Below, piece by piece: positions 7,972 through 21,309 of a DNA stretch of 28,682 nt (positions are counted from its first letter, which is position 1; each line of letters opens with the position of its first letter). Under the pieces are notes generated by a model that saw nothing but the letters and a program-made list of their open reading frames with translations, made no database searches and was not told the origin of the DNA. Location of the stretch: contig JBAYEZ010000001.1 of assembly GCA_041667485.1 (NCBI GenBank), positions 1-28,682 on the forward strand. Reading direction: 5' to 3'. The translations under genes and the position numbers were made by a program. This stretch comes from Bacilli bacterium. GTDB taxonomy: Bacteria > Bacillota_I > Bacilli_A > RFN20 > CAG-826.

Positions 7972-7998
7972 AAACCAAAAGAACTTTATGGTTTTTTT
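7972..7998 (+). terminator. Expression-platform terminator of the riboswitch
   Basis: AAACCA-AAAG-AA-CTTT-A-TGGTTT followed by a T run, immediately after P1. Confidence 0.55.
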
Positions 7999-8059
7999 GT
8001 CTTTGAGGAGATCGTTTTCCATTTTCATAGGAAGAAAATGCGAGAAAAGGATCAAAGGC

Positions 8060-9421
8060 ATGAAAAACCATTTGAATGTCGTCTTGTTCTCCCTCATCGC
8101 TGCGGCCGGAGCTACTTTGCTCGCTGGCTGCGGGCCCGCCACTGCTTCATCGGCAAACGGATCGGCTTCGGGGGCTCCCACCACTTCGGCGCCCGCTTCG
8201 AAGAAAATTGGCGTCGTCCTCATCGGCGATGCAACCGAAGGTTACAGCGCAGCTCACATTGATGGCATCAACGAGGCCGCGGCAGAATTAGGCATTTCCG
8301 ACCGTCTCCTCTACAAATACAAAGTTCAAGAAGACGATGGCTGCAAGACTGCCATCGATGATTTGGTCAGTGAAGATTGCGGCTTAATCATCTCCAACAG
8401 CTATGGTCACCAAGACTACATGGCCCCGGCCGCCAAAGCCAACAAAGACGTCACCTTCATCTCGATGACTGGCGACTACGCCGCCGTTTCGAAGATCAGT
8501 AATTTTAAGAATGCTTTTGTCTCGATTTATGAAGCTCGCTACGTCTCGGGCATCGTCGCTGGCATGAAATTAAAAGAATTAGCGGATGGCAACAAGCTCG
8601 ACACCACCTTCAACCAAGATGGGAATGGCAACTGGAAAATCGGCTACGTCGGAGCTTATAAGTACTCCGAAGTCGTCTCGGGCTACACCGCCTTCTATCT
8701 CGGCGTCAAATCCGTCATCTCAAATGTCGTCATGAAGGTACAGTTCACCAATTCGTGGTTCGATATCTCTGGCGAAGGCGCCGCTGCCGACGCTTTGGTC
8801 AAGAATGGCTGCGTCGTGATTGGCCAACATGCCGATTCGACTGGCGCTCCGGCCAAAGTCCAGTCCCTCTTAGGCACGGCGCGGGCTGATGATGCCACAA
8901 AAAAGTATGTCTGCTATTCCGTAGGCTTCAATATTGATATGATTCCGACCGCCAAAGATGCCGCTTTAACCTCAGCCATCAATATTTGGAAGGTCTATTA
9001 CAAGTACGCGTTCACCCAATACCTCAACGGCCGAACGATCGACACCGATTGGTGCAAAGGCTATGCCGATGGCGCGGTTGGCACTTCGACGCTCAATACG
9101 TCTTGTGCCGCTGGTACCCAAGCCGCCGTTGATACCGCAGTTGCTGCGATCAAAGCCGGCACTCTCCACGTCTTCAACACCGCGAATTTCACTGTGGGCG
9201 GCAAGACGCTCACCAGCGCGATTATCGATCTTTCGCACTACGATTACAGCACCGGCAGCGCCCAGCTTGTTTACGAAGGCGACAAAGTCGAAGCAATCAA
9301 GAAAGACGGCGACGTCTCCTTCTTCTCTGAGAGCACGCTCCGTTCCGCTCCGTACTTCAACGTCGGCGTTGATTCCTCCTTCGCCCTCATCGATGTCGAT
9401 GGCATTTCGGTTCTGAGCTGA
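8060..9421 (+). CDS. BMP-family ABC transporter substrate-binding lipoprotein (purine nucleoside/base)
   Basis: Start reassigned to ATG 8060 (AAAGG upstream); signal peptide with lipobox LAGC; Ser/Thr/Ala linker; IGYVGA, SWFD, QHADST motifs. Confidence 0.88.
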   Translation: MKNHLNVVLFSLIAAAGATLLAGCGPATASSANGSASGAPTTSAPASKKIGVVLIGDATEGYSAAHIDGINEAAAELGISDRLLYKYKVQEDDGCKTAIDDLVSEDCGLIISNSYGHQDYMAPAAKANKDVTFISMTGDYAAVSKISNFKNAFVSIYEARYVSGIVAGMKLKELADGNKLDTTFNQDGNGNWKIGYVGAYKYSEVVSGYTAFYLGVKSVISNVVMKVQFTNSWFDISGEGAAADALVKNGCVVIGQHADSTGAPAKVQSLLGTARADDATKKYVCYSVGFNIDMIPTAKDAALTSAINIWKVYYKYAFTQYLNGRTIDTDWCKGYADGAVGTSTLNTSCAAGTQAAVDTAVAAIKAGTLHVFNTANFTVGGKTLTSAIIDLSHYDYSTGSAQLVYEGDKVEAIKKDGDVSFFSESTLRSAPYFNVGVDSSFALIDVDGISVLS

Positions 9422-9440
9422 TTCTCCACCAAGCTTTTTG

Positions 9441-9463
9441 GGAAGGGGCTAACCGCCCCTTCC
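9441..9463 (+). other. Intercistronic GC-rich stem-loop after the binding-protein gene
   Basis: GGAAGGGGC-TAACC-GCCCCTTCC, a 9-bp stem followed by TTCTTCGTT. Confidence 0.65.
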
Positions 9464-9485
9464 TTCTTCGTTATTAAGGAATCTC

Positions 9486-11054
9486 ATGACCCAAGAAATC
9501 GAACTCAAAAACATCACAAAATGCTTCGGCGGCAATGTAGTGGCAAACCACAACGTCTCTTTGGCGATAAACCAAGGAGAAATTTTGGCTCTTCTGGGTG
9601 AGAATGGCAGCGGAAAAACGACCTTGATGAACATGCTTTCGGGTCTCTATTATCCTGACGAAGGCACGATTCTCGTCGAGGGCAAGGAAGTCAAAATCAC
9701 CTCGCCGAAGAAAGCCTTTGAATTTGGGATTGGCATGGTCCATCAGCATTTCAAACTAATCGATACCTTCACGGCCGGCGAGAACATCATCCTCGGACTC
9801 AATGGGGGTTTCTGGCTCAAAATGAAGGACGTCAATGCTAAAATAGCCGCCCTCTGTTCCCGTTATTCTTTCGAGATCGACCTCAACAAAAAAATCTACG
9901 ACATGAGCGTTTCCGAGAAGCAGAAAGTCGAGATCGTCAAACTGCTTTATCGCGGAACCAAAACTCTGATTTTGGATGAGCCAACAGCCGTGCTGACCCC
10001 CCAAGAGACCGATAATCTTTTTAATGTCCTCCGTCTCATGAAAAAAGACGGTAAGGCGATTGTCATCATCACCCACAAACTCAATGAAGTTCTCTCTCTT
10101 TCCGACCGAGTCGCGATTCTCCGAAATGGCGAACTCATCAAAACTCTTTTGACCAAAGAAACGAATGAAGGCGAACTGGCTGATTCTATGGTGGGCGAAC
10201 ACGTTAAACTCAACATCGCCCGCGCCAAGCCAGTCCAGCCGCAGAAAGTTCTCGAAATCAACCACCTTTCCACCATCGACGCCTACGGGGTGAAGAGTTT
10301 GAAAGATGTTTCCTTCTACGCCAATAGCGGGGAAATCCTCGGCATCGCCGGCGTGAGTGGAAGCGGCCAAAAAGCCTTGCTCGAGGCCATCGCCGGACTG
10401 CAACGCTGCGAAAAAGGCTCTTCGATCCTCTACCGCTATGACGAAAAGAAAAAGATCCCCGAGCCCGCTAAGCGAGGCAAAAAGACCGCTTTACTTCCCG
10501 ATCAATGCGAACTGGTCGGCAAATCGGTAAAGCAAATCAAAAATCTCGGCATATCCCTCGCCTTTGTCCCCGAAGACCGTTTAGGAATGGGCCTCGTCGG
10601 TGAGATGGACATGGTTGATAACATGATGTTAAGAAGCTACGAAAATGGCAATTCGCCATTCCTTCGTTATCAGGAGCCGAGCGCCTTAGCCGAAGAAATT
10701 AAAACGAAACTCGCCGTCAACACGCCTTCGGTAAAAACGCCGGTCCGCAAACTCTCTGGCGGCAACGTCCAAAAAGTTCTCGTTGGCCGCGAAATTGCCT
10801 CATCGCCGCGAGTTTTGATGACCGCCTACGCCGTCCGCGGGCTTGACATCAACACTTCTTACTCTATTTACAACATCCTCAATGATCAAAAAAAAGCCGG
10901 ATTATGCGTCATTTATGTCGGCGAGGATTTGGATGTTCTTTTGGAACTGGCCGATCGAATCGTCGTTCTCTGCGATGGCAAAGTCACGGGCATCCTCGAT
11001 GCTCGCAAGACCAGCAAAGCTGAAGTCGGTGCTTTGATGAGCAAGCAAAAATAA
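9486..11054 (+). CDS. ABC transporter ATP-binding protein, tandem domains (CUT2/nucleoside type)
   Basis: GENGSGKT, GMVHQHF, LILDEPTAVL, FVPEDR, LSGGNVQK. Confidence 0.93.
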   Translation: MTQEIELKNITKCFGGNVVANHNVSLAINQGEILALLGENGSGKTTLMNMLSGLYYPDEGTILVEGKEVKITSPKKAFEFGIGMVHQHFKLIDTFTAGENIILGLNGGFWLKMKDVNAKIAALCSRYSFEIDLNKKIYDMSVSEKQKVEIVKLLYRGTKTLILDEPTAVLTPQETDNLFNVLRLMKKDGKAIVIITHKLNEVLSLSDRVAILRNGELIKTLLTKETNEGELADSMVGEHVKLNIARAKPVQPQKVLEINHLSTIDAYGVKSLKDVSFYANSGEILGIAGVSGSGQKALLEAIAGLQRCEKGSSILYRYDEKKKIPEPAKRGKKTALLPDQCELVGKSVKQIKNLGISLAFVPEDRLGMGLVGEMDMVDNMMLRSYENGNSPFLRYQEPSALAEEIKTKLAVNTPSVKTPVRKLSGGNVQKVLVGREIASSPRVLMTAYAVRGLDINTSYSIYNILNDQKKAGLCVIYVGEDLDVLLELADRIVVLCDGKVTGILDARKTSKAEVGALMSKQK

Positions 11055-11066
11055 AGGGGATTTGCG

Positions 11067-12311
11067 ATGGATAAAACGGAAAAAAACAAAAAAGAAGCCT
11101 TAATCCGCATTGCCAAACGCGATGATCTTTCTTTTGGCAAACGCGCCTTGATCCGCACCTTTTGCGTCATCTCTGCCATCCTCACCTGCATCCTTCTTTT
11201 ATGGGTCATCGGCCTCAAGGATCCTTTTCCGGCCATCGGCCTCATTTTCGATGGGACGTTCAAAGGCGTTTTCGATGGCAACTTCAAAAAGTTGATCCCC
11301 GCCCTCCAAGCCATGGTGATGCTCTTAGGGATTTCCGTCGCTTTAGCCCCGGCCTATCAGATGAAGTTCTGGAATGTTGGCGCCCAAGGCCAAGTCTTGA
11401 TGGGAGCCCTCGGAGCCTGCGTCTGCATGATTTATGGCCATAGTCTTCCCAATAGTTTATTGATTTTTCTCTCCTTCTTGGCCGCGGTCAGTTTCGGTGC
11501 AATCTGGGCGATGATTCCGGCCCTCTTCAAAGCCAAATGGAATACGAACGAGACCCTTTTCACCTTGATGATGAACTACATCGCGATCCAACTCGTCAGT
11601 TTCTGCACAATGCTGTGGCGCGGCAAAAACAGTTCGATGTCGCTCATCAATTCCGCAAGCGAAAAAGGATGGTTGCCCCATTGGGGTGGCAACGACATGC
11701 TCTTACCGCTCGCGGTGGTTGTGATTATGGTCATCTTAATGTGGGCTTATCTCAGCAAAACCAAGCACGGCTATGAATTGACCGTCATTGGCGACAGCGT
11801 CAATACGGCGCGCTATACGGGCATCAAAGTCAAATGGGTCATCATCCGGACTTTGCTTCTCTCGGGCGCTTTGTGCGGTTTAATGGGCTTTCTCTATGCC
11901 GCCGGAATCGAGCATAAAATCTCGGTCGACACCTCTGGATCTTATGGTTTTACCGCCATCATCGTCTGCTGGCTTTCCTATTTTAATCCGTTCCTAATGG
12001 GTGTCTTCTCGTTGTTAATCGTCTTCCTCGACAAAGGGGCGATGAACCTCAAAAACGCCGCTTACGCACCTGCCCTCAACGAGTACTCGTGCGAGTTGCT
12101 TGTCTTCGTCATCCTCGTTTCAATCATGCTATCAGAATTCTTCATCCGTTACCGCCTGCTCTTCAGCGATTCGTTTAAAGAAAAGACGGGCATACTCTGG
12201 CATAAAATCACTTCTTTCTGTAAAGACCCATTTAAACCCCATCAGCCTCTAGCCTCTCCAGCTCCATCGAATCAAATGGCCCCCGAGAAAAAGGAGGAGA
12301 AAAATGAATAA
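11067..12311 (+). CDS. ABC transporter permease (nucleoside type)
   Basis: FWNVGAQGQ, NETLFTLMMNY, YGFTAIIV; multi-TM. Confidence 0.9.
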   Translation: MDKTEKNKKEALIRIAKRDDLSFGKRALIRTFCVISAILTCILLLWVIGLKDPFPAIGLIFDGTFKGVFDGNFKKLIPALQAMVMLLGISVALAPAYQMKFWNVGAQGQVLMGALGACVCMIYGHSLPNSLLIFLSFLAAVSFGAIWAMIPALFKAKWNTNETLFTLMMNYIAIQLVSFCTMLWRGKNSSMSLINSASEKGWLPHWGGNDMLLPLAVVVIMVILMWAYLSKTKHGYELTVIGDSVNTARYTGIKVKWVIIRTLLLSGALCGLMGFLYAAGIEHKISVDTSGSYGFTAIIVCWLSYFNPFLMGVFSLLIVFLDKGAMNLKNAAYAPALNEYSCELLVFVILVSIMLSEFFIRYRLLFSDSFKEKTGILWHKITSFCKDPFKPHQPLASPAPSNQMAPEKKEEKNE

Positions 12312-13290
12312 CATCATTGCTTGGATTACTTACTCGGTGGTTTATGCCTCGATCATCATGATGGGCGCATTGGGCGAAACGCTGACTGAGAAGAGCGGCC
12401 ATCTCAACTTAGGGGTTCCTGGTGTTATGTACATCAGCGGCTTCTTAGGCTACTACGCAACCTTCTGCTACGAACAATCCACGGCAAATCCCAATCCGTT
12501 CTTGATTGTTGTCATTTCTCTAGGGGTCGCCGCCATCGTCGGCGGGTTCGCCGGTTTCCTCTATTCGCTTCTCTGTGTCAGTTTCAAATGCAACCAAAAC
12601 GTAGTCGGCCTCTTGCTGACTGCCGTCTGCGTCGGCTTCTCAAAATCGATTTCCTTCGCGGTTGGCATCACCACCACTTCAAAAGCGGATTTCTCAGGCA
12701 CAGTTTTTAATGCGCGAATCCCCGGCCTCTCTGCCATCCCCTACATAGGGCCAGTTCTCTTTGGCTATGGTTTTAGCGTCTACCTCGTCATCCTCTTAGC
12801 GATCCTCGCTGGGATCTTCCTCAAAAGGACCCGCTATGGCCTCAATCTCCGTTCTGTGGGCGAATCCCCTGCGGCTGCCGATGCAGTCGGCATCAACGTC
12901 ACCCGTTATAAATATGTTACCACTGTCGTCGGCTGCGCCATCTGCGGCGTCGGTGGCGTCATGTACGTTCTCGGCTATGGCGGTGGTCAATGGTCGACCA
13001 ATAACGACATCGAAGCGATAGGCTGGCTCTCGGTCGCCCTCGTCATCTTCTCAAGTTGGAAACCCATCCACCTTATCTGGGGCTCAATCATCTTCGGCAT
13101 TCTTTTCTGGGCCTACAATTATTTGCCCCACGTCGTCGCGCTCCCGAGTTTCACCGGGGCGGGCGAACTCCTCAAAATGCTGCCTTATATCGTCACCATC
13201 ATCGTCCTCGTCGTCAATTCGGCAAAGAAGAAAAAGGAGAATCAGCCCCCGGCCTCGTTAGGCATCTCCTACTTCCGGGAGGAGCGATGA
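12304..13290 (+). CDS. ABC transporter permease (nucleoside type)
   Basis: LTEKSGHLNLGVPG, LRSVGESP, GWLSVALVIF, LPYIVTI; overlaps the previous gene by 8 nt. Confidence 0.9.
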   Translation: MNNIIAWITYSVVYASIIMMGALGETLTEKSGHLNLGVPGVMYISGFLGYYATFCYEQSTANPNPFLIVVISLGVAAIVGGFAGFLYSLLCVSFKCNQNVVGLLLTAVCVGFSKSISFAVGITTTSKADFSGTVFNARIPGLSAIPYIGPVLFGYGFSVYLVILLAILAGIFLKRTRYGLNLRSVGESPAAADAVGINVTRYKYVTTVVGCAICGVGGVMYVLGYGGGQWSTNNDIEAIGWLSVALVIFSSWKPIHLIWGSIIFGILFWAYNYLPHVVALPSFTGAGELLKMLPYIVTIIVLVVNSAKKKKENQPPASLGISYFREER

Positions 13291-13367
13291 AAGCGTTTCA
13301 CTGAAAAAATACTGAACCTTCCTGTTGCAATACGTTAAAATAAAAAATTAGAAAAGAGGAGATAGTC

Positions 13368-14027
13368 ATGGATTTATCTCAATATCCGAATGCGGTTTTG
13401 CTAAATCATCCTTTACTCCAGCACAAAATCACGCTTTTGCGCGATAAAAACACTCCGACGAGCGTCTTCCGTCCCTTGGTGAAAGAGATTGCAATGCTCG
13501 AGGGTTACGAAGTCCTCAAAAACCTGCCGACCGAGCCCTTAGAAGTCGAAACCCCGATCGAAAAGACCGTCCAACCCACCGTGAGCGGCAAAAAAATCTG
13601 TTTTGTCCCAATTCTCCGAGCGGGCATGGGGATGGTCGATGGCTTCCTCTCCCTCTTGCCAACCGCCCATTGCGGCCATATCGGCCTTTACCGCAACGAG
13701 GTGACACACCAGCCGGTCGAGTACTATTGCAAACTCCCCGCCGGCCTCGCTGACATGAATATCTATCTCCTTGATCCGATGCTTGCCACCGGCGGAAGCG
13801 GCATCGATGCCGTCAAAATTCTCAAGAATCACGGTGCAAAGAAGGTTACCTTCGTCTGCATCATCGCCGCCCCCGAAGGCGTCGAAGCTTTCTGCAAAGA
13901 GAATCCGGACATCCCGCTCTACTTCGGCGCCCTCGACCGCTGCCTCAACAAAAACGCCTATATTTGCCCGGGTCTCGGGGATGCAGGCGATCGAATCTTC
14001 GGCACCGTCGGCGGAACAGTTAAATAG
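13368..14027 (+). CDS. upp: Uracil phosphoribosyltransferase
   Basis: HPLLQHK, PILRAG, GLYRNE, DPMLATGGS, PGLGDAGDR. Confidence 0.97.
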   Translation: MDLSQYPNAVLLNHPLLQHKITLLRDKNTPTSVFRPLVKEIAMLEGYEVLKNLPTEPLEVETPIEKTVQPTVSGKKICFVPILRAGMGMVDGFLSLLPTAHCGHIGLYRNEVTHQPVEYYCKLPAGLADMNIYLLDPMLATGGSGIDAVKILKNHGAKKVTFVCIIAAPEGVEAFCKENPDIPLYFGALDRCLNKNAYICPGLGDAGDRIFGTVGGTVK

Positions 14028-14586
14028 CCTTCGTCTTCAACAAGTCGTCCAGCGCCTTCACTTCCTCCTCCGTCGGCACATAGACGTAAGGGGTGTTGCG
14101 TTCAAGGCCGTTGTAGTCAAGGCCATAGCCTAATAAAAACTTATTCTCCGTTAAAACTCGTCCCGTGAAATCGACTTGAACGTCGACCTTGCGGGCGATT
14201 TTTTTATCAAAAAGCGCGCAAATCAGAATCCGTTTGGGCTTGCCAAGACTTAAAAGGTGTTCCTTGAGAAAGGTCATCGTGAGACCGGTGTCCACCACAT
14301 CCTCCACCACGATGACACTGCGGCCATCGATTGGAGTCGTGATGTCCCGCTTAAGATGGACGATGCCCGTCGATTGGGTGCCGCTATAGCTTTCGAGCTG
14401 AACATAATCCTCAAGCAAAGGAACGGAAACGTACTTTAAAAGATCGACCATAAAAGGCATCGCGCCTTTCATCACGCAGATAAAAAGAGGCAACTTCTCC
14501 TCGTTCTTCAAAAGCGTGGTTAACTTTTGGCCCAAATCAGCGCAAGTGATCTCAATCGCTTGGTGCGACATTACCATTTCTTTCAT
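14020..14586 (-). CDS. hpt: Hypoxanthine(-guanine) phosphoribosyltransferase
   Basis: VMKGA, SYSGTQSTG, VVEDVVDTGLT, GYGLDY. Start reassigned to ATG 14586 (GGAGG SD). Confidence 0.94.
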   Translation of the reverse strand: MKEMVMSHQAIEITCADLGQKLTTLLKNEEKLPLFICVMKGAMPFMVDLLKYVSVPLLEDYVQLESYSGTQSTGIVHLKRDITTPIDGRSVIVVEDVVDTGLTMTFLKEHLLSLGKPKRILICALFDKKIARKVDVQVDFTGRVLTENKFLLGYGLDYNGLERNTPYVYVPTEEEVKALDDLLKTKAI

Positions 14587-14723
14587 CGATAGCCTCCGAG
14601 ATAACTTTTTATTATAAATGCTTGTAGGGGCAAAGGACACCCCCAGCGGAAAAAGCAAAAAAGAAAGCGCTTAGAATGGAAAAAGAACTCCGACGAAATT
14701 ATACTAACGTAATGGGAAAAAAC

Positions 14724-15659
14724 ATGGAACAAGAAAGCCAAGCGCCCCTCCTTTTTACCCTCGGAGCGAACCCTACTGTTTCCCACGAGGTTTCCACCCT
14801 TCTTAATTTGCCTTTAGCGCCGAATAAAGTCACACACTTTGCTGATGGCGAAACCTTCGCCAAACCGCTGTGTCCGGTCACGAACCGCCACTGCATCATT
14901 ATTCATTCGACCTTCAACCCCGTCAGCGCTCGCTTGATGGACTTGCTGGTCTTTGTCGATGCCTTAAAGAATGCCGACGCCGCCTCAATCACGGCCATCA
15001 TTCCTTATTTTGGTTACGCAAGGCAAGACCGCATCATTGAAGAGGGCGATCCAATCAGCGGCTTACTAGTAGGCAAAATCCTCCAAACGGCCGGCGTCGA
15101 CCGCATCGTCGTGATGGATTTTCACTCGATGAAACTGCTCGACCGATTCCCGGAAGAACATATCAATCTTTCGGCCGCGCCGATTTTCGCCCACCGCTTC
15201 CTTGAAGACCTTGATGAAGCCAAAATTATGGCCAACAATGTTTGTGTCGTTTCGCCAGACCACGGCGGATTGACCCGTGCTCAAAATTTCGCTGCAAATT
15301 TCGAAGGGGCGGGTTTTGCCTACGCCATCAAGAATAGACCGCAGCCGAATAGAGCGGTCATCGAAGGCATCGAAGGCGATTTTAAAGGCAAACTTTGCCT
15401 TATCATCGATGACATCATCGATACGGCCGGTACCCTCTCCGAGGTGGCTAAGTTCCTTTTAGCCAACGGCGCCAAAGAAGTTTGGGTTGCCGCCACCCAC
15501 GGCATTTTCTCGGGCCGGGCTGTCGAACTCATCAAGGAAGCTAATATCAAAAAAGTCTATATTGCCAACACGATTGAATCAAACCAAGAGAGAGCTGAGA
15601 TTCTCTCAATCGCTCCGATTATCGCCGATTATATCCGCGCAAACTACGCCAAACACTAA
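14724..15659 (+). CDS. prs: Ribose-phosphate pyrophosphokinase (PRPP synthetase)
   Basis: FADGE, PYFGYARQDR, VVSPDHGG, IIDDIIDTAGT, ATHGIFSG. Start uncertain (14676, 14712 or 14724); 14724 gives a typical N-terminal length. Confidence 0.92.
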   Translation: MEQESQAPLLFTLGANPTVSHEVSTLLNLPLAPNKVTHFADGETFAKPLCPVTNRHCIIIHSTFNPVSARLMDLLVFVDALKNADAASITAIIPYFGYARQDRIIEEGDPISGLLVGKILQTAGVDRIVVMDFHSMKLLDRFPEEHINLSAAPIFAHRFLEDLDEAKIMANNVCVVSPDHGGLTRAQNFAANFEGAGFAYAIKNRPQPNRAVIEGIEGDFKGKLCLIIDDIIDTAGTLSEVAKFLLANGAKEVWVAATHGIFSGRAVELIKEANIKKVYIANTIESNQERAEILSIAPIIADYIRANYAKH

Positions 15660-17224
15660 TTCTTAATGGGATGAACCTCGTGACAGACGGGGCAGACAAA
15701 CTCGCCCTTCGGCGTCAGTTTTGTGATGTTGCGAAAGAAGAGCGACGCTTCGACTTTCCGGTAGTAACGCCACATCTCATTTTTGCTAAACAGGGCGGGA
15801 TTGACAGATATCTTCTTAAAAGAAGCGATGTCGGTGTAAGTATAGGACTCGCCTGTTTTGGGGCACTTCGTTTCCTGAATCAAGGTGTGGCAACTATCAC
15901 ATTCATAGCCCCCATCTTTCTTCCGCTTATGGAGTTTGCCCGCGCAAAAGGGGCACTCGTCTCGCGCCGTATCGCTCCTGACCATCGCCCGCAAAAGAGC
16001 CTGCTGAATCCGTCGAAAGGAATCGATTGCTTCAACGCTAATGAATAAAGCGGAAGGATCGAGCGTTTCTTCTTCAAAAGGCTCGGTGAGCAAGTCTTCA
16101 TCATGGGGGTACTTAGCGGCCAATTTCTCGAGTTCCGGCGTCCATAGTCCATCGAGGGTCGGAAGGAAAAGGAGCCGATAGATTTTCTCTTTGCTGACCT
16201 CGACCATCATGGCTTTCCCTTCAAGGTTGCTCAAATGGACCTTCCAGGTTTTATAAGCCAGGGAGAGATCAAGGTTCGTCAGGTCCATCACCGCTTTCGG
16301 ATCCGCTTCAAAATTGAATTGGGTGATTGCAAAAACAATGAGGGTCTGGACGAAATTGAAGTAGTTTTTGCAGAGATTTTGCTCATTGACGGGTTTCGCT
16401 TCAACCATCGCCGCATCTTTTTTGGCGAAGAAGGCCTTGGCCAATTTATAGATTTGGTGGTAATCCTTCTGCATAATGAAAATATTCGTTTTCTTTAGGG
16501 TCAGTCGCTTATTTCTTATTTTGTTCTTTTGGTAGATCGGCTTAATCAAGCGGGATTGAATCACATTGGCAGCGCTTTGAAGTTCATCATAGAGCTGGTC
16601 GGCTAGAGCAAAATATTTCTCAAAATCCCTGATATATCCCGTATGGAGTTTGCCGATCGTCAAAAAATAATTCAGATGGTTCGAGCGTTCCAAAAGATTG
16701 AACTGAAGAATCTCTTTGGCGTAGACCACGTCCTTCAAGGCGGTGACATTGGTACGAATGTAATGCATGATTGCGTCGATCAAGTTACAGAAGATGACAT
16801 TCTCATAAATGCTGTAGTCATCCTCGTAGACTCGAGTCAATAATTGGCGGGGCTTCACGCCCTTAGCGGTGATATCGGAGGCATTCTCGGTGTGATTGGC
16901 GAGATGTTGCATCGTCTCCTGATTAATGATCCGGACCGTCGCAACGGGCAAAACGTCGCTGCCGTCGGTCAGATTGATAATCGGCTTAGCGAAGATTCGT
17001 TTGATTGCCGGCAAGGCCAGATTGACTTTCTCCAACATGCTTTTGAGTCCATCAAAATCGAAGTTGGGCTCGACAGCAAATAAGGTTAGATCATGGATGG
17101 TATAATAATCAAACTCAATGAAATTAAACGAAGAATGCTGGTCGAAGAAATGACCTAATGGGGCTAAAACCTCGTCGAGGCGCGTCAGATCTTCGACTTG
17201 CTTCTCGTCCGTTTCCTTCCTCAT
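15656..17224 (-). CDS. DUF2357/McrC-like protein with C-terminal Cys-rich (Zn-ribbon) region
   Basis: PRQLLTRVYEDDYSIYENVIF resembles the DUF2357 YDxYEN motif; DYHQIYKL; C-terminal CPFC, CDSC, CP, CPVCH. Starts 2 nt after the stop of a McrB-like GTPase; start reassigned to 17224 (GAGG SD). Confidence 0.7.
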   Translation of the reverse strand: MRKETDEKQVEDLTRLDEVLAPLGHFFDQHSSFNFIEFDYYTIHDLTLFAVEPNFDFDGLKSMLEKVNLALPAIKRIFAKPIINLTDGSDVLPVATVRIINQETMQHLANHTENASDITAKGVKPRQLLTRVYEDDYSIYENVIFCNLIDAIMHYIRTNVTALKDVVYAKEILQFNLLERSNHLNYFLTIGKLHTGYIRDFEKYFALADQLYDELQSAANVIQSRLIKPIYQKNKIRNKRLTLKKTNIFIMQKDYHQIYKLAKAFFAKKDAAMVEAKPVNEQNLCKNYFNFVQTLIVFAITQFNFEADPKAVMDLTNLDLSLAYKTWKVHLSNLEGKAMMVEVSKEKIYRLLFLPTLDGLWTPELEKLAAKYPHDEDLLTEPFEEETLDPSALFISVEAIDSFRRIQQALLRAMVRSDTARDECPFCAGKLHKRKKDGGYECDSCHTLIQETKCPKTGESYTYTDIASFKKISVNPALFSKNEMWRYYRKVEASLFFRNITKLTPKGEFVCPVCHEVHPIKN

Positions 17225-17226
17225 CC

Positions 17227-19908
17227 TTAGTCCTCGTTGAGCTTCGAAACGAATTCGGCGCATTTGTTGAGGTGGAGATTCTGGAAGGATTCGACCAATT
17301 CTTCTTTGTTATCAATTGTCTTCACTTCGAGCTTGCTGACGACTTTGCTAAGAAGGATCGTTTCGATCGCCTCGTCTTCAACTGGGCCGCCGGCAAAGCA
17401 GGCTTCATAAATTACGACGAAGTCCTCAATCTGCTTCATGATACGGTTACCAAAGGAAATATTGTACGGGGATAAGAGCGCTTCGGTCTTTTGGATCAAG
17501 AGGTTGTTCTCGGCATCGAAATGGCCCTGAGACTTCGCCTCTTCAAATAAGGCGTTGAGTTGGGCATAGGTGTAGAAACGCCGCGAAATCGGACTCGAAG
17601 AAGCGTCACGGACCTTTGGCGCGCGATGATTGAAGTTCATCGTGTGAGCCCGATCGTAGACCTTGTCGGAAATCACGAAGGTTGATTCGTCGCGGTTGGC
17701 GGTGCCGATGAACCAGATATTAGAAGGAATCATCATCGTCTTCCCGTCGGCGAGGAGCGAATACGCCTTATCGCCTTCAGGGATCTTTTGGACAAGGGGA
17801 ATGTTTAGGAGCTGAATCTGGCGTTTTCCTTCCTCGTTTTCCATGAGCGAAAGGAAATCGGAAAAGTAATACTCGATGCGGGAAAGATTCATTTCATCAA
17901 GGACAATGAAGGTCGGAATCTCCGGATTGAGAGCGGCTTTGTAGAGAGCCTGCGTGAACTTTTTCGGCGAATAACGCTCTGAGAACTCGTTGTAATAGCC
18001 CAGAAGTTCGTTTTTGTCTTTCCATGAGGACTCAACTTCGACAAGATCGCAATCGCCGTCGATCGCTTCCATGAAAATTTTCGGAAGGGAGGTCTTGCCA
18101 GTCCCCGACATGCCTTGAAGAATGGTCAAGCGAGTCGCGCCTAGACCAGCGACAAAAGCGGCGATATCTTGCGCGCTATAGGAGAGATGAAGCCGGCAAT
18201 CTTTGGCATACTCCACCACAAATTTCACCAAATCGTTGAGCGAGGCGGCCTTAACGGCGAGTTTCTTCCGCTCATCGATATCTTTTTGAAAAATTTCTTT
18301 TTCGGCGTCCAATGCGCTAAAAGCAGGGCACGGATCAAAAACGACGGAGGAATTTGCGGGGATTTTTTCATTTTTCTTTTCAGGCAGAACAGCGGTTGCC
18401 GCTTCATCCCCTCCGATAATGAGTGGCTCCTCCTTGAAAATTTTGCGAGCAATCATCACGATGAGGAGAACCACATCGATGTAGAGCATATAAACCACGT
18501 CGGTCCGCATCGAATACTCGATGCTTTCGTTATAGGTATAGCCGTAAAGAATCAAAAGCTTCTTGGTGTTTTCGATGTTGATCTGGGTTGCAATCGAGAA
18601 ATAATAACCTGAGATGCCGAAAACAAACATGAAGGCGACGTTGACCAAGATAGCCGCTTTGGCGACCGCGACGTAACGGCGGTCTCGCGCAATGAAACTG
18701 GTCAAAGAAACAAGGAGGGCGATTCCTGTCGAAATCAGCATGACGACAAGGGCGAAGGCGGTGACCTGGTAGCCCGAGCCCAACTGTCCGTATTTCTGCA
18801 AAAGTTCAATCCCCGTCAACTTAACTTCGGATTTGTAACTGCCTGAAACAAAACCGACATCGATGACGTTGAGGAACAAGGAACCAATGGAAATCGCAGT
18901 AACAACGAAAACGTAAATCAAGAGTTCAATTCGTTGAGAAGAATGCATCTCTTTTTTCTTTCGGATTCGCTCCTCTTCGGGCCCAGAATAATAATCAAAG
19001 CGGCCTTTGAGAACGGCAAAGACAATCTCGGCAACTGCCATGAGCAAGAGCGGAACAAAAGCGGTCGAACGGACTTCGTAGTTCTTGAGGGCATAGACAT
19101 AATCGATAATGAAACCCAATAAAAAGAACTCAAGAGCGACGCCGAATTCAAGGAAAAACAAGATTTTCGAATTGGCCATGAAACGTTTCTTGTCGCTGAA
19201 GAAATAGGAGAGCGAAGACAAAAAATAGAGCAAGCACAAAATAAACAGCATCACTTGGACCAAAAGAAAAATCGAGTCTTCCGCTTGGATGCTTTTACCC
19301 ACCAAGACGTTGAATAAAATGCAGATATTATTGTTGACCGAGCCATGGAACTCGTAAAGCGGAACCGTCAGCATCGCAATCAATAGGATCAAGGTTGCGA
19401 TGAGATCCATCAGCAGGCCGCCGGTGGCTAAGGGCTTGGCCTTCGCGGCATTCTCTTCCGAAATCGACGCTGCCCCATCGGCAGGTTTCTTCCCAAGAAC
19501 AAGGAAGGTGAAAGCCCCAAGAATCAAAAGCAAGGCAAAAACGACGAGAGCGATGGCCCAGCCACTCAGTTCTTTAAAAACCGCATTGAAGGCAAAGAAG
19601 GCCAAACAGAGGCAAATCCCATAGGCAATCGTGAAGAAAAATGGCGTCTTCTTTTTCTTAACCAAACCCGCAATGCTAAAGCCGAGGGGCAAAAGATAAA
19701 GAAAAAAGGCGATATCCAAAACGAGAGCGAAAGTCTTTTCGTTATCAAGACCACTCTCGGTGGCAAAAGGAATACTCCAAAGAGAGTAGGCGCTCCGGCC
19801 TCCTGATAAAGGAAGCATCAAAATACCAAGATTAAAGAAGAAGACTAAACATAATAAACCCAAGGCTATCGCTTTGAATAACCACGGTTTTCTATCCAAT
19901 ATTTTCAT
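17227..19908 (-). CDS. Polytopic membrane protein (about 12 TM) fused to a C-terminal McrB-like AAA+ GTPase
   Basis: Walker A GMSGTGKT (18091-18114), Walker B FIVLDEMNLSRIEYYFSDFLS, GTANRDES (NxD, 17686-17706), DKVYDRA; 12 hydrophobic segments N-terminally. Start uncertain; 19908 chosen because TGCTATGAT (extended -10-like) lies upstream of it inside the longer ORF. Confidence 0.82.
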   Translation of the reverse strand: MKILDRKPWLFKAIALGLLCLVFFFNLGILMLPLSGGRSAYSLWSIPFATESGLDNEKTFALVLDIAFFLYLLPLGFSIAGLVKKKKTPFFFTIAYGICLCLAFFAFNAVFKELSGWAIALVVFALLLILGAFTFLVLGKKPADGAASISEENAAKAKPLATGGLLMDLIATLILLIAMLTVPLYEFHGSVNNNICILFNVLVGKSIQAEDSIFLLVQVMLFILCLLYFLSSLSYFFSDKKRFMANSKILFFLEFGVALEFFLLGFIIDYVYALKNYEVRSTAFVPLLLMAVAEIVFAVLKGRFDYYSGPEEERIRKKKEMHSSQRIELLIYVFVVTAISIGSLFLNVIDVGFVSGSYKSEVKLTGIELLQKYGQLGSGYQVTAFALVVMLISTGIALLVSLTSFIARDRRYVAVAKAAILVNVAFMFVFGISGYYFSIATQINIENTKKLLILYGYTYNESIEYSMRTDVVYMLYIDVVLLIVMIARKIFKEEPLIIGGDEAATAVLPEKKNEKIPANSSVVFDPCPAFSALDAEKEIFQKDIDERKKLAVKAASLNDLVKFVVEYAKDCRLHLSYSAQDIAAFVAGLGATRLTILQGMSGTGKTSLPKIFMEAIDGDCDLVEVESSWKDKNELLGYYNEFSERYSPKKFTQALYKAALNPEIPTFIVLDEMNLSRIEYYFSDFLSLMENEEGKRQIQLLNIPLVQKIPEGDKAYSLLADGKTMMIPSNIWFIGTANRDESTFVISDKVYDRAHTMNFNHRAPKVRDASSSPISRRFYTYAQLNALFEEAKSQGHFDAENNLLIQKTEALLSPYNISFGNRIMKQIEDFVVIYEACFAGGPVEDEAIETILLSKVVSKLEVKTIDNKEELVESFQNLHLNKCAEFVSKLNED

Positions 19909-20224
19909 GGGGAGGTCGCTCGCTTTCGCTGCATGGGTATCATAGCACTTACGCATACTCGCACGGAAACGAGAATTCGTAATTCGGGTTCTCCGTGCGT
20001 CGGCGGAAGAGCAAGAGACAAAAAACAAAAAGGGCACGAATAGATTGTTCCAATGCGTTATAAAAACGCAATCTCTTCAAAAACTCGTTGTTTTCTTCGA
20101 AATACCAAGATCCAGCCGACCCGTTTAACAAATCAATTTCACTTTTCTGAAAATGCACCATTCAAAAATGAGATATTATCAATAAGAAGAAGCGCGAGCC
20201 TCAAAGGTTCTCTTCCGCTGAATA

Positions 20225-20520
20225 ATGAACAAAGGAAACACACATCGCTGGAGTTGGAAATTTTGGCCGTTGCGGAATAAGGTCTTCCTTTTGATGCTTC
20301 TTATCTCTCTTCTCCCGGTCGGCTTCGTCACTGGTTATTCAATCTATTCGATTTCCGACACGATGAAGCAGCGTTCGATTAACGATTTAAAAACAGCGTT
20401 CTTTGGCTTCAAAACAAGCTGAGCGACACGACAGCAAGCTATACTCGAATTTTCTTGGAATTTGAAACGGACACCGATTTTTGCAATAGTGTTTCGACAG
20501 CTTCATCAGCGACCTTTTGA
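20225..20520 (+). pseudogene. Remnant of a membrane sensor (histidine kinase or chemoreceptor) 5' end
   Basis: LRNKVFLLMLLISLLPVGFVTGYSIYSISDTMKQRSINDL is a typical TM1 plus start of an extracellular domain. Restoring one A in the A5 run near 20390 continues KNSVLWLQNKLSDTT...; a stop follows at 20520. Confidence 0.5.
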
Positions 20521-20713
20521 TACAAATGCTTTCCTAGGCCGCACGATGAGAAGAGAAGGCTGCTTTACCGGAATCGATTCGAATATATCTTTGCCTTTCG
20601 AAGGAAGGAAGTTAAATATTTCTCCGCTTTTGGAACGATGAGAGCAATGATTGGTTCCCCGTCAGCAAACAGGTGCTCGAATTTGAAATTGAGACTGGGG
20701 TTCAAACTCTTCG

Positions 20714-20893
20714 CTAAGAAATTAGCAAAATGATCTGATTACACTTATCTCCATAATGCTCATTCAGATATTTGGCAAATATATTCTTCAGCAAATATGA
20801 TTTGCCACATCTTCTCACACCGGTTATAACTTTCGGAAATCCATTGTTTATCGATTTTATAAGGATTGATAGATATTTGTCCCTTTTAATCAC
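20714..20893 (-). pseudogene. 5' fragment of an AAA_14/DUF4143-type ATPase gene
   Basis: GTG start with AAGGAG SD: VIKRDKYLSILIKSINNGFPKVITGVRRCGKSYLL (Walker A variant GxRRxGKS); the frame breaks after about 59 codons. Confidence 0.72.
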
Positions 20894-21042
20894 TGCTTCT
20901 CCTTTTTGGTAGAATTCTACCTTTTTAGAGATTCTTAATAGCAATAAATTCTACCTGTGGATAGTTTTGTTATTAGAAGTAAAAACTTCTTCTCTTTTTT
21001 TACAAACGAGGGTGGCGGGTAGAGTGGAGATCTCCACTCACG

Positions 21043-21070
21043 AAAAAAGAGAGCCTGGGAGACTCTCTTT
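21043..21070 (-). terminator. Intrinsic terminator downstream of tRNA-Ala
   Basis: AAAGAGAG-N9-CTCTCTTT plus a T run on the minus strand. Confidence 0.65.
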
Positions 21071-21179
21071 CTATAATTGGCTTACTTGATGCTAGGCTTC
21101 ATCGGCTTAGTAATAGCAAACCTTAACGCAATCGCCCTTTCGATACGAGTATCAAATGAGTGTGCGTCTGGCGACCATT

Positions 21180-21255
21180 TGGTGGAGCCAACGGGGATCG
21201 GACCCGCGACCTCCTCGTTGCGAACGAGGCGCTCTCCCAGCTGAGCTATGGCCCC
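21180..21255 (-). tRNA. tRNA-Ala (anticodon CGC), encoded CCA
   Basis: GGGGCCA TA GCTC AGCTGGGA GAGC G CCTCG TTCGCAA CGAGG AGGTC GCGGG TCCGATC CCCGT TGGCTCC ACCA; 76 nt, G3:U70 and A73 alanine identity elements. Confidence 0.96.
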
Positions 21256-21268
21256 AAAACGCGTAGTT

Positions 21269-21297
21269 ATTATAGTGAATCACCCTTTGCGTTACAA
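21269..21297 (-). promoter_or_regulatory. Sigma-A promoter of tRNA-Ala
   Basis: TTGTAA-N17-TATAAT, 13 nt upstream of the mature 5' end. Confidence 0.75.
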
Positions 21298-21309
21298 CAA
21301 AATCAAAAA

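Follow-up and report, generated by a model that had tools for sequence, protein, structure and literature searches.

A McrC-like protein with a probably inactive PD-(D/E)xK fold and a putative two-zinc tail, encoded beside a polytopic membrane McrB-like GTPase in a Bacilli genome

Introduction

DNA cleavage that is driven by GTP and depends on modification has its textbook example in the McrBC-type systems. On the minus strand of a 28,682-nucleotide stretch of contig JBAYEZ010000001.1 from a Bacilli bacterium (assembly GCA_041667485.1; the whole stretch that was analysed is called the window here), a gene for a McrB-like GTPase is followed by a gene for a McrC-like protein, and the question that this locus raises is whether such a pair still cuts DNA. 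An earlier note on the window had described a DUF2357-like region in the McrC-like protein, had found no PD...(D/E)xK motif after it, and had counted enough cysteines in the C-terminal tail for up to two zinc sites. It proposed that the protein stimulates the GTPase with an inactive or highly diverged nuclease fold, that the output of the system may not be DNA cleavage, and that structure comparison with PD-(D/E)xK folds and conservation of the acidic residues and cysteine motifs among homologues should be examined.

The analysis described below indicates that the protein is probably a catalytically dead adaptor of the CnuC kind, in which the DUF2357 part would engage the GTPase ring, while the dead fold, a helix starting with the residues SFRR and a two-zinc module would bind a ligand, probably nucleic acid.

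Results

A nuclease fold in the C-terminal half

The C-terminal 251 residues of the McrC-like protein were folded alone with an alignment of 98 diverse homologues, the identity of which goes down to 24% in this region and from which all conservation counts out of 98 given here are taken. Residue numbers are counted from the Met at 17224. The model obtained (pLDDT, the predicted local distance difference test score, 94.9; predicted template modelling score 0.92) begins with a helix (281-302), continues with four antiparallel strands (319-324, 327-334, 338-344 and 348-355), and then has a crossover helix (363-371), a parallel strand (376-381) and a further helix (402-417).

Structure comparison with VIA matched residues 1-155 of this model most closely to VC1899 (Z 7.1), BpuSI (6.8), SgrAI (6.7) and EcoRI (6.5), and further matches included BsoBI, Can2, Bse634I, Bax1, BsaWI, NgoMIV, Cfr10I, NucC and Hjc (Z 5.3). 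The nuclease domain of Escherichia coli McrC (6hz4_M) was matched with a Z of 5.8 over 109 residues at 3.6 Å. Among ESM-Atlas models, a cluster with DUF2357 and PDDEXK_7 domains superposed over 147 residues at 3.2 Å and a PDDEXK_7 cluster over 139 residues at 3.3 Å, and two clusters from Bacillota and Myxococcota shared the whole architecture (template modelling score 0.72). A profile search of PDB sequences matched solely zinc ribbons of the eL43 and TFIIB type, and alignment of the family with the single E. coli McrC sequence by hhalign gave no match. Prediction of a homodimer of the C-terminal half scored 0.30 against a mark of 0.42, which gives no verdict on dimerisation. Taken together, the models support, rather than prove, the assignment of residues ~281-418 to a PD-(D/E)xK fold and its homology with the nuclease of McrC.

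Loss of the canonical active site

In the restriction-endonuclease fold, the (D/E)xK motif lies on the strand before the crossover helix, and the strand before that one carries an Asp at its start. The corresponding strand in the McrC-like protein, 348-355, reads x-Y-[K/R]-h-h-h-h-P in the consensus; E-[Y/F]-K is found at 348-350 in only 6 of the 98 members, and the query itself reads I-Y-R. Strand 338-344 has a variable start without a conserved acid. No PD occurs anywhere in residues 286-425, and the only [DE]xK strings there, DPK at 308 and EGK at 335, both lie in loops and are unconserved. When the E. coli protein (TD-ITIRSS-EK-ILIVDAKYY..LLIYP) was placed by eye in register with the query (GK-AMMVEVS-KEK-IYRLLFLPT..LLTEP), the catalytic D257 and K259 fell opposite hydrophobic residues. 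Within this domain, residues conserved in at least 90% of the sequences were found only in the aromatic and hydrophobic core and in S-F-R-R-x-Q-Q, the most conserved motif after the fold apart from those with cysteines, where S402 and F403 are invariant and R404 and R405 are kept in 93/98 and 97/98, respectively. Because the catalytic positions are variable or hydrophobic, and only the core and the SFRRxQQ residues reach this level of conservation, the alignment and the model support the view that the canonical D...(D/E)xK site is gone. The fold is retained in the VIA and ESM-Atlas comparisons and its canonical catalytic positions are unconserved, in line with the inactive or diverged nuclease fold that the earlier note had envisaged. 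A scan with PF04411 for canonical PDDEXK_7 relatives matched 0 of 151 genomes, controls included, and is hence uninformative.

The examination of acidic residues had a second outcome. A different charged set, made up of K345, D/E346, K347, D375, E376, E384, D386 and D/E401, is moderately conserved: K345 is present in 82/98 sequences and E376 in 87/98, with an acid at 346 in 79% and at 401 in 94%. The residues from K345 to E376 (window 16097-16192) may serve as an interface, as a network of salt bridges or as a site that has been relocated. Migration of catalytic residues is known in PD-(D/E)xK enzymes, for example in the Cfr10I/NgoMIV/SgrAI group, members of which are among the structural matches listed above. 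The protein would then be an active nuclease with a non-canonical site built from the K345/D346/K347 hairpin, D375-E376 where the next parallel strand begins, and E384/D386 or D401. We consider this unlikely, as topology places the KDK turn, and the beginning of the parallel strand that follows, on the far edge of the sheet from the canonical site, and none of the residues is invariant in the 98 sequences, unlike the cysteines, the SF of SFRRxQQ and the RN of a motif in the tail. In addition, E376 has not been retained in the long CnuC relatives, which were called inactivated by Bell et al. (PMC11090510).

A probable two-zinc module in the tail

The cysteine clusters of the tail (CPFC at 15944-15955, CDSC at 15890-15901, CP at 15860-15865 and CPVCH at 15680-15694 of the minus-strand translation) contain seven cysteines, C424, C427, C442, C445, C454, C511 and C514, all of which are invariant (98/98), and H518 is kept in 89/98; this pattern lies well outside what chance would produce. 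The full cysteine pattern is present in 190 of 212 collected proteins of at least 450 amino acids. Both cysteine knuckles of the first ribbon are flanked by strands in the model, and Pfam zinc ribbons match most members of the family (Zn_ribbon_IS1595 in 43/44 and the TFIIB type in 27/44).

Comparison with longer relatives gave a further clue to the second site. In the ~520-residue family, 150 of 162 sequences have a single cysteine at the third motif and a histidine after the last CPxC. Among relatives of 600-900 residues, the third motif is a cysteine pair in 20/27, and 16 of those 20 are without the trailing histidine. This reciprocal pattern supports a ligand swap at a metal site, from C4 to C3H, and therefore argues for real metal binding. 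Both the invariance of the cysteines and the swap between subfamilies fit the two zinc sites that had been suggested, and the tail is best described as a conserved structural module in which a C4 ribbon and a C3H site would each hold zinc. Site 2 can apparently be lost: in the divergent members P0158 and P0169, the first ribbon and FRNI(T/I) are kept, whereas C454 and the terminal CPxC are missing.

The most conserved motif of the tail apart from the cysteines is FRNIT (R 96/98, N 97/98, I 96/98 and T 92/98), which follows a helix carrying E492 (87/98) and is flanked by ligands of site 2. Zinc-bound HNH domains end in N...CxxCH, and the tail bears a loose similarity to them, with a β-hairpin followed by a helix in the model, N499 (97/98) before the terminal CxxC and histidine, and the helix residue E492. 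The tail could therefore be read as a catalytic ββα-metal (HNH-like) nuclease, with a system that still cuts nucleic acid. This is highly improbable, since there is no conserved histidine to act as general base (the only conserved one, H518, co-varies as a zinc ligand), the spacing from the asparagine to CxxC is unlike that of HNH, and the 25 most frequent Pfam matches of 44 members include no HNH family and are dominated by zinc ribbons. Searches of the Atlas with features of the zinc tail, and of the membrane domain of the partner described below, gave no usable named match. A structural zinc module remains the preferred description of the tail.

The DUF2357 part

The motifs quoted in the earlier note were located in the translated minus strand at residues 133 (YEDDYSIYEN), 254 (DYHQIYKL) and 287 (NYFNFV); these, the cysteine clusters and the gene limits 15656-17224 all lie where it had placed them. 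The query falls below the Pfam threshold for DUF2357, and 3/44 family members match weakly. Among other Bacilli genomes, however, DUF2357 proteins validated by Pfam were matched by positions 62-300 of the family profile (E 1e-10 to 1e-18), and longer relatives found with phmmer (P0220, P0252, P0238 and P0210; E 1e-18 to 1e-27) lie above the cut-off. By these profile matches, the N-terminal two thirds of the protein are securely assigned, through homology, to a true, diverged DUF2357/McrC N-terminal domain.

An AlphaFold model of the full-length protein had a pLDDT of 75. Its long helices (residues 126-223) matched spectrin- and STAT-like structures of the coiled-coil type with a Z of 7-8.6. 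Residues 83-137, modelled with low confidence, may be a finger that enters the ring of McrB and becomes ordered only within the complex, a suggestion based on the McrBC structures cited in PMC11090510. Together with the conserved KRIFxKP segment, this region would point to stimulation of the GTPase by the DUF2357 part.

Gene limits and homologues

The longest open reading frame (ORF) of the gene runs from 17263 to 15656 on the minus strand, with 535 codons. The start used here is the conserved Met encoded at 17222-17224, which is shared by homologues of 517-528 amino acids; it is preceded by GAGGA and lies 2 nt past the stop codon of the partner gene, and for these reasons 15656-17224 are taken as the right limits of the gene.

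The family is large and well conserved: a word-indexed search with the protein gave 485 homologues, and 599 matches, 188 of them with E <1e-10, came from an exhaustive search of 50% representatives. No Pfam, NCBIfam or PADLOC assignment was found for the family, and the source labels of the homologues are solely hypothetical or 'L37ae/zinc-ribbon'. Named sources are metagenome-assembled genomes of Bacilli, Acholeplasmataceae and Izemoplasmatales, and the homologues come mostly from metagenomes of small-genome Bacilli.

The partner GTPase is predicted to be membrane-built, and no nuclease was found beside it

The gene translated before the McrC-like gene encodes a GTPase with a Walker A motif (GMSGTGKT, 18091-18114), a Walker B motif (LDEMN) and the NxD signature N-R-D (17689-17697), and the longer form of this signature, GTANRDE, is present in the partner and in four orthologues. 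Its N-terminal 530 residues contain ~12 predicted transmembrane helices, followed by a short linker. The longest ORF of this gene extends to 20037, where a GTG lies 43 codons upstream of the Met shared by all orthologues. This extension (19909-20037) is unconserved and probably remains untranslated, and the conserved Met has no clear Shine-Dalgarno sequence in front of it.

The same pair, an NxD GTPase of ~900 residues with 11-13 transmembrane helices followed by the 520-residue protein, was found in four other, independent contexts (L001, L003, L004 and L031), the neighbours of which are unrelated to one another. No nuclease domain, HEPN included, was found in the flanks of the pair in the window or in these four contexts with readable flanks, and the module holds no further gene that is conserved across contexts. 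This lends weight to the suggestion that the output may not be DNA cleavage. A CnuE-like query gave no match in the host genome (a 1.2 Mb assembly, 73% complete).

The arrangement differs in some relatives. In the last 299 residues of a cut ORF (L033:1-900) upstream of the divergent member P0176 (553 amino acids, with a cysteine pair at the third motif and no histidine), 7 transmembrane helices are predicted and a GTPase motif is absent. The transmembrane module may be a separate gene on this short contig, which would link the membrane domain and the GTPase functionally. Other NxD-type pairs occur in related small-genome Bacilli; in one of them, a 419-residue GTPase with the sequence GTANKDD adjoins a DUF2357 protein (L009, G036:C40). 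DUF2357 proteins without a nuclease domain occur in 31 of 201 class-level genomes; those at L011-L030, of 360-620 amino acids, have long charged, coiled-coil or low-complexity tails and neither the nuclease fold nor the zinc module. Nuclease-less McrC homologues thus seem to be common in this class.

A patchy and mobile-looking module

Orthologues within the genus are present in only 2 of 24 species, at 36-37% identity, and the distribution is patchy and mobile-looking. Each of the two copies (G022:C16:19563-21038, L007; G014:C146:68-1138, L008) has an in-frame TAA and may be decaying.

The pair may have nothing to do with immunity and may instead be a membrane accessory machine for the uptake or handling of nucleic acid, or for remodelling of membrane proteins. 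The flanks in the window and in other genomes are of a housekeeping kind (nucleobase salvage, HAD, RmuC) without defence genes, the transmembrane domain belongs to no known family, and there is no nuclease. These observations would suit such a role, which we nevertheless regard as improbable. Orthologues are patchy within one genus and highly divergent, their flanks vary, the module has a tRNA gene, a gene remnant and a low-G+C spacer next to it, and its closest relatives are CoCoNuT and McrBC systems. Patchiness, variable flanks, the site beside a tRNA and kinship with CoCoNuT are typical of mobile defence modules.

On the upstream side, the flank consists of the spacer with the gene remnant, tRNA-Ala, HAD and RmuC. 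The spacer upstream of the operon (19909-21309, 1.4 kb long) has a low G+C content, with 38% at 20001-21000 compared to ~48% elsewhere. It contains tRNA-Ala(cgc) at 21180-21255 on the minus strand, and a 76-codon ORF (20714-20944, minus strand) carrying the P-loop-like sequence GVRRCGKS, which looks like an N-terminal remnant of an ATPase of the AAA_14/DUF4143 type. The spacer may be an insertion scar beside the tRNA; no att-like direct repeat linking tRNA-Ala to the end of the module was found. Downstream of the pair (7988-15659) lie genes of nucleobase/nucleoside salvage, which are unrelated to the finding: a Bmp-type ABC transporter (substrate-binding protein, ATPase and two permeases), uracil phosphoribosyltransferase, a second phosphoribosyltransferase and phosphoribosyl pyrophosphate synthetase. 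The features of the pair are collected in Table 1.

Table 1. Features of the McrC-like gene and its partner, in window coordinates
Feature	Coordinates	Strand	Basis
McrC/CnuC-like gene, 522 aa from conserved start Met	15656..17224	-	translation, homologue starts
Diverged DUF2357 (McrC N-terminal) core, residues ~60-270	16415..17047	-	KRIFxKPII, HLANH, YEDDYxIYEN, LKKTNIFxMQKDY motifs
Low-confidence segment, residues 83-137, pLDDT <50 in monomer model	16814..16978	-	AlphaFold model
Predicted long helices, residues 126-223, coiled-coil-like insert in DUF2357 as in CnuC	16556..16849	-	model and structure matches
Predicted PD-(D/E)xK-fold domain without catalytic triad, residues 281-418	15971..16384	-	model, structure matches, conservation
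Start of SFRRxQQ helix, residues 402-408	16001..16021	-	alignment of 98
Putative Zn site 1: classical C4 zinc ribbon, CPFC...CxxC (C424, C427, C442, C445)	15890..15955	-	
C454, putative first ligand of Zn site 2, CxxC in long relatives	15863..15865	-	
FRNIT motif, residues 497-501	15722..15736	-	alignment of 98
CPxC...H (C511, C514, H518), completing putative Zn site 2 as C3H	15671..15694	-	
Partner gene, 893 aa from conserved Met, translationally coupled to McrC-like gene	17227..19908	-	
Polytopic membrane domain of partner, ~12 predicted transmembrane helices, no known family	18448..19869	-	
McrB-like AAA+ GTPase domain of partner	17230..18246	-	motifs

Discussion

Several points weigh against our interpretation of the McrC-like protein as a dead nuclease in a system that does not cleave DNA. 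The VIA scores, at Z <=7.1, are middling by the scale of the tool itself, and folds of the P-loop and Rossmann-like type were listed as well. The comparison with PD-(D/E)xK folds was in this sense divided, with matches in VIA and ESM-Atlas and no meaningful match in Foldseek against the PDB for either the whole or the C-terminal model (template modelling score ~0.14). The catalytic positions were assigned from the order of secondary structure, topology rules and a register made by eye, and not from a residue-level superposition, and the charged set around K345 and E376 shows moderate conservation of its own. PADLOC models gave 0 matches for the protein and 43 relatives. Lastly, a nuclease acting in trans may be encoded elsewhere, as the host genome is only 73% complete.

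Even so, the output of the two-gene system is most likely not cleavage in the manner of McrBC, because the nuclease fold appears dead, the partner GTPase carries ~12 transmembrane helices and lacks a DNA-binding domain, and no nuclease is co-encoded. Among other outputs, a membrane-linked one is favoured since the 12-helix domain is the only remaining candidate for an effector domain. We put forward only tentatively that this domain is the leading candidate effector and that the output is linked to the membrane.

The best-supported reading of the pair is as follows. The DUF2357 part, by homology, would dock into the hexameric ring of the adjoining McrB-like GTPase and control GTP hydrolysis. 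The PD-(D/E)xK fold, without D...(D/E)xK, would not cut DNA by canonical chemistry, and together with the SFRRxQQ helix may have been retained as a scaffold or as a surface that binds nucleic acid. The two-zinc module, which frames the FRNIT loop, most likely reads a ligand (nucleic acid) or a protein. For the output, the leading candidate is that GTP drives an effect at or on the membrane, which could be perturbation of the membrane, as in abortive infection, or the interception of nucleic acid on its way in. It is conceivable, if on balance doubtful, that the pair is a nuclease-free membrane machine of the McrBC type, in which the dead fold and the zinc module read nucleic acid of the invader or another cue, and the ring shifts the 12-helix domain to permeabilise the membrane or block entry.

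The interest of the locus lies in the fact that hundreds of homologues keep the dead fold and a strict zinc module, in a pair without a replacement nuclease and with a membrane-built GTPase. If these two genes work in their present form, a restriction-family AAA+ GTPase would have been rewired to a non-nucleolytic, membrane-linked output, and the pair would offer a simple two-gene model for the role that the dead nuclease and the zinc ribbon, both conserved, play in CnuC proteins. Should the membrane domain indeed be the effector, the Type IV restriction/McrBC superfamily would gain a new effector mode.

Among known systems, E. coli McrC (EcoKMcrBC, 6hz4) is likewise encoded directly after its McrB GTPase, and its C-terminal domain has the same fold with a similar order of strands and helices. 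Its catalytic residues D244, D257 and K259, however, have no counterparts in the McrC-like protein, and it has no zinc module and an N-terminal domain of the PF10117 type rather than the DUF2357 type seen here. Proteins with DUF2357 and PDDEXK_7 domains (PF09823 and PF04411) have a homologous N-terminal domain and a superposable C-terminal fold. In contrast to these, the query is under both Pfam thresholds, has lost the catalytic motif and has gained the zinc module. The likeness to subunit A of the PADLOC candidate PDC-M26 is limited to the AAA+ core of the partner: the GTPase domain matched PDC-M26A at E 1e-52 with this core alone covered, and the model is matched by any NxD GTPase.

The closest known counterpart is CnuC of Type II CoCoNuT, for which DUF2357, an inactivated PD-(D/E)xK domain and a zinc ribbon have already been described (Bell et al., eLife 2024, PMC11090510). 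Alignment of the family with long CnuC relatives by hhalign gave a probability of 100% and E 1e-55 over 460 columns. One such relative, P0221, lies in a Type II-like CoCoNuT locus (L034) and is preceded by three genes, for a Upf1-like helicase, a 530-residue HEPN-like protein with R-x4-H, and an 820-residue NxD GTPase without transmembrane helices. CnuC and the McrC-like protein both have DUF2357 with a helical or coiled-coil insert, a dead PD-(D/E)xK fold and a CPxC zinc ribbon, and both are paired with a McrB GTPase carrying the NxD motif, the shortened signature that defines a branch of McrB GTPases (PMC11090510).

The differences lie in the domains and in the company of the two proteins. 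The McrC-like protein is without the N-terminal immunoglobulin-like β-sandwich of CnuC (the alignment starts at CnuC column 124, and the N-terminus of the query is modelled as a helix), and an insertion of ~100 amino acids in the nuclease fold is missing. The third cysteine pair of CnuC is reduced to one cysteine, with a histidine apparently recruited as ligand; in the zinc ribbon of CnuC itself, the CPxC motifs are often down from three to two (PMC11090510). Unlike Type II CoCoNuT, the pair here lacks genes for the CnuH helicase, the CnuE HEPN protein and TerY-P, and the GTPase has ~12 transmembrane helices in place of the coiled coil (as judged without a dedicated coiled-coil predictor). According to Bell et al., HEPN or another nuclease always adjoins a McrC nuclease that is dead or missing (PMC11090510), a rule that is not followed in the five contexts with readable flanks.

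NxD GTPases tied to the membrane are shared with CoCoPALM. The only membrane-linked NxD GTPases mentioned in PMC11090510 are CoCoPALM fusions with a single transmembrane helix of the FtsB-like kind, the word 'transmembrane' is absent from its supplements, and beyond this paper we found no literature on PDC-M26 or a transmembrane McrB. CoCoPALM has its one FtsB-like helix with a coiled coil and is linked to signal-peptidase and pilus genes, whereas the pair here has a 12-helix domain and no such neighbours. The architecture of the McrC-like protein is thus of an already known kind, that of CnuC, so the novelty of the protein alone is lower; what the description in PMC11090510 does not include is a polytopic membrane domain on the GTPase, a pair without a partner nuclease, loss of the immunoglobulin-like domain, and a C3H site.

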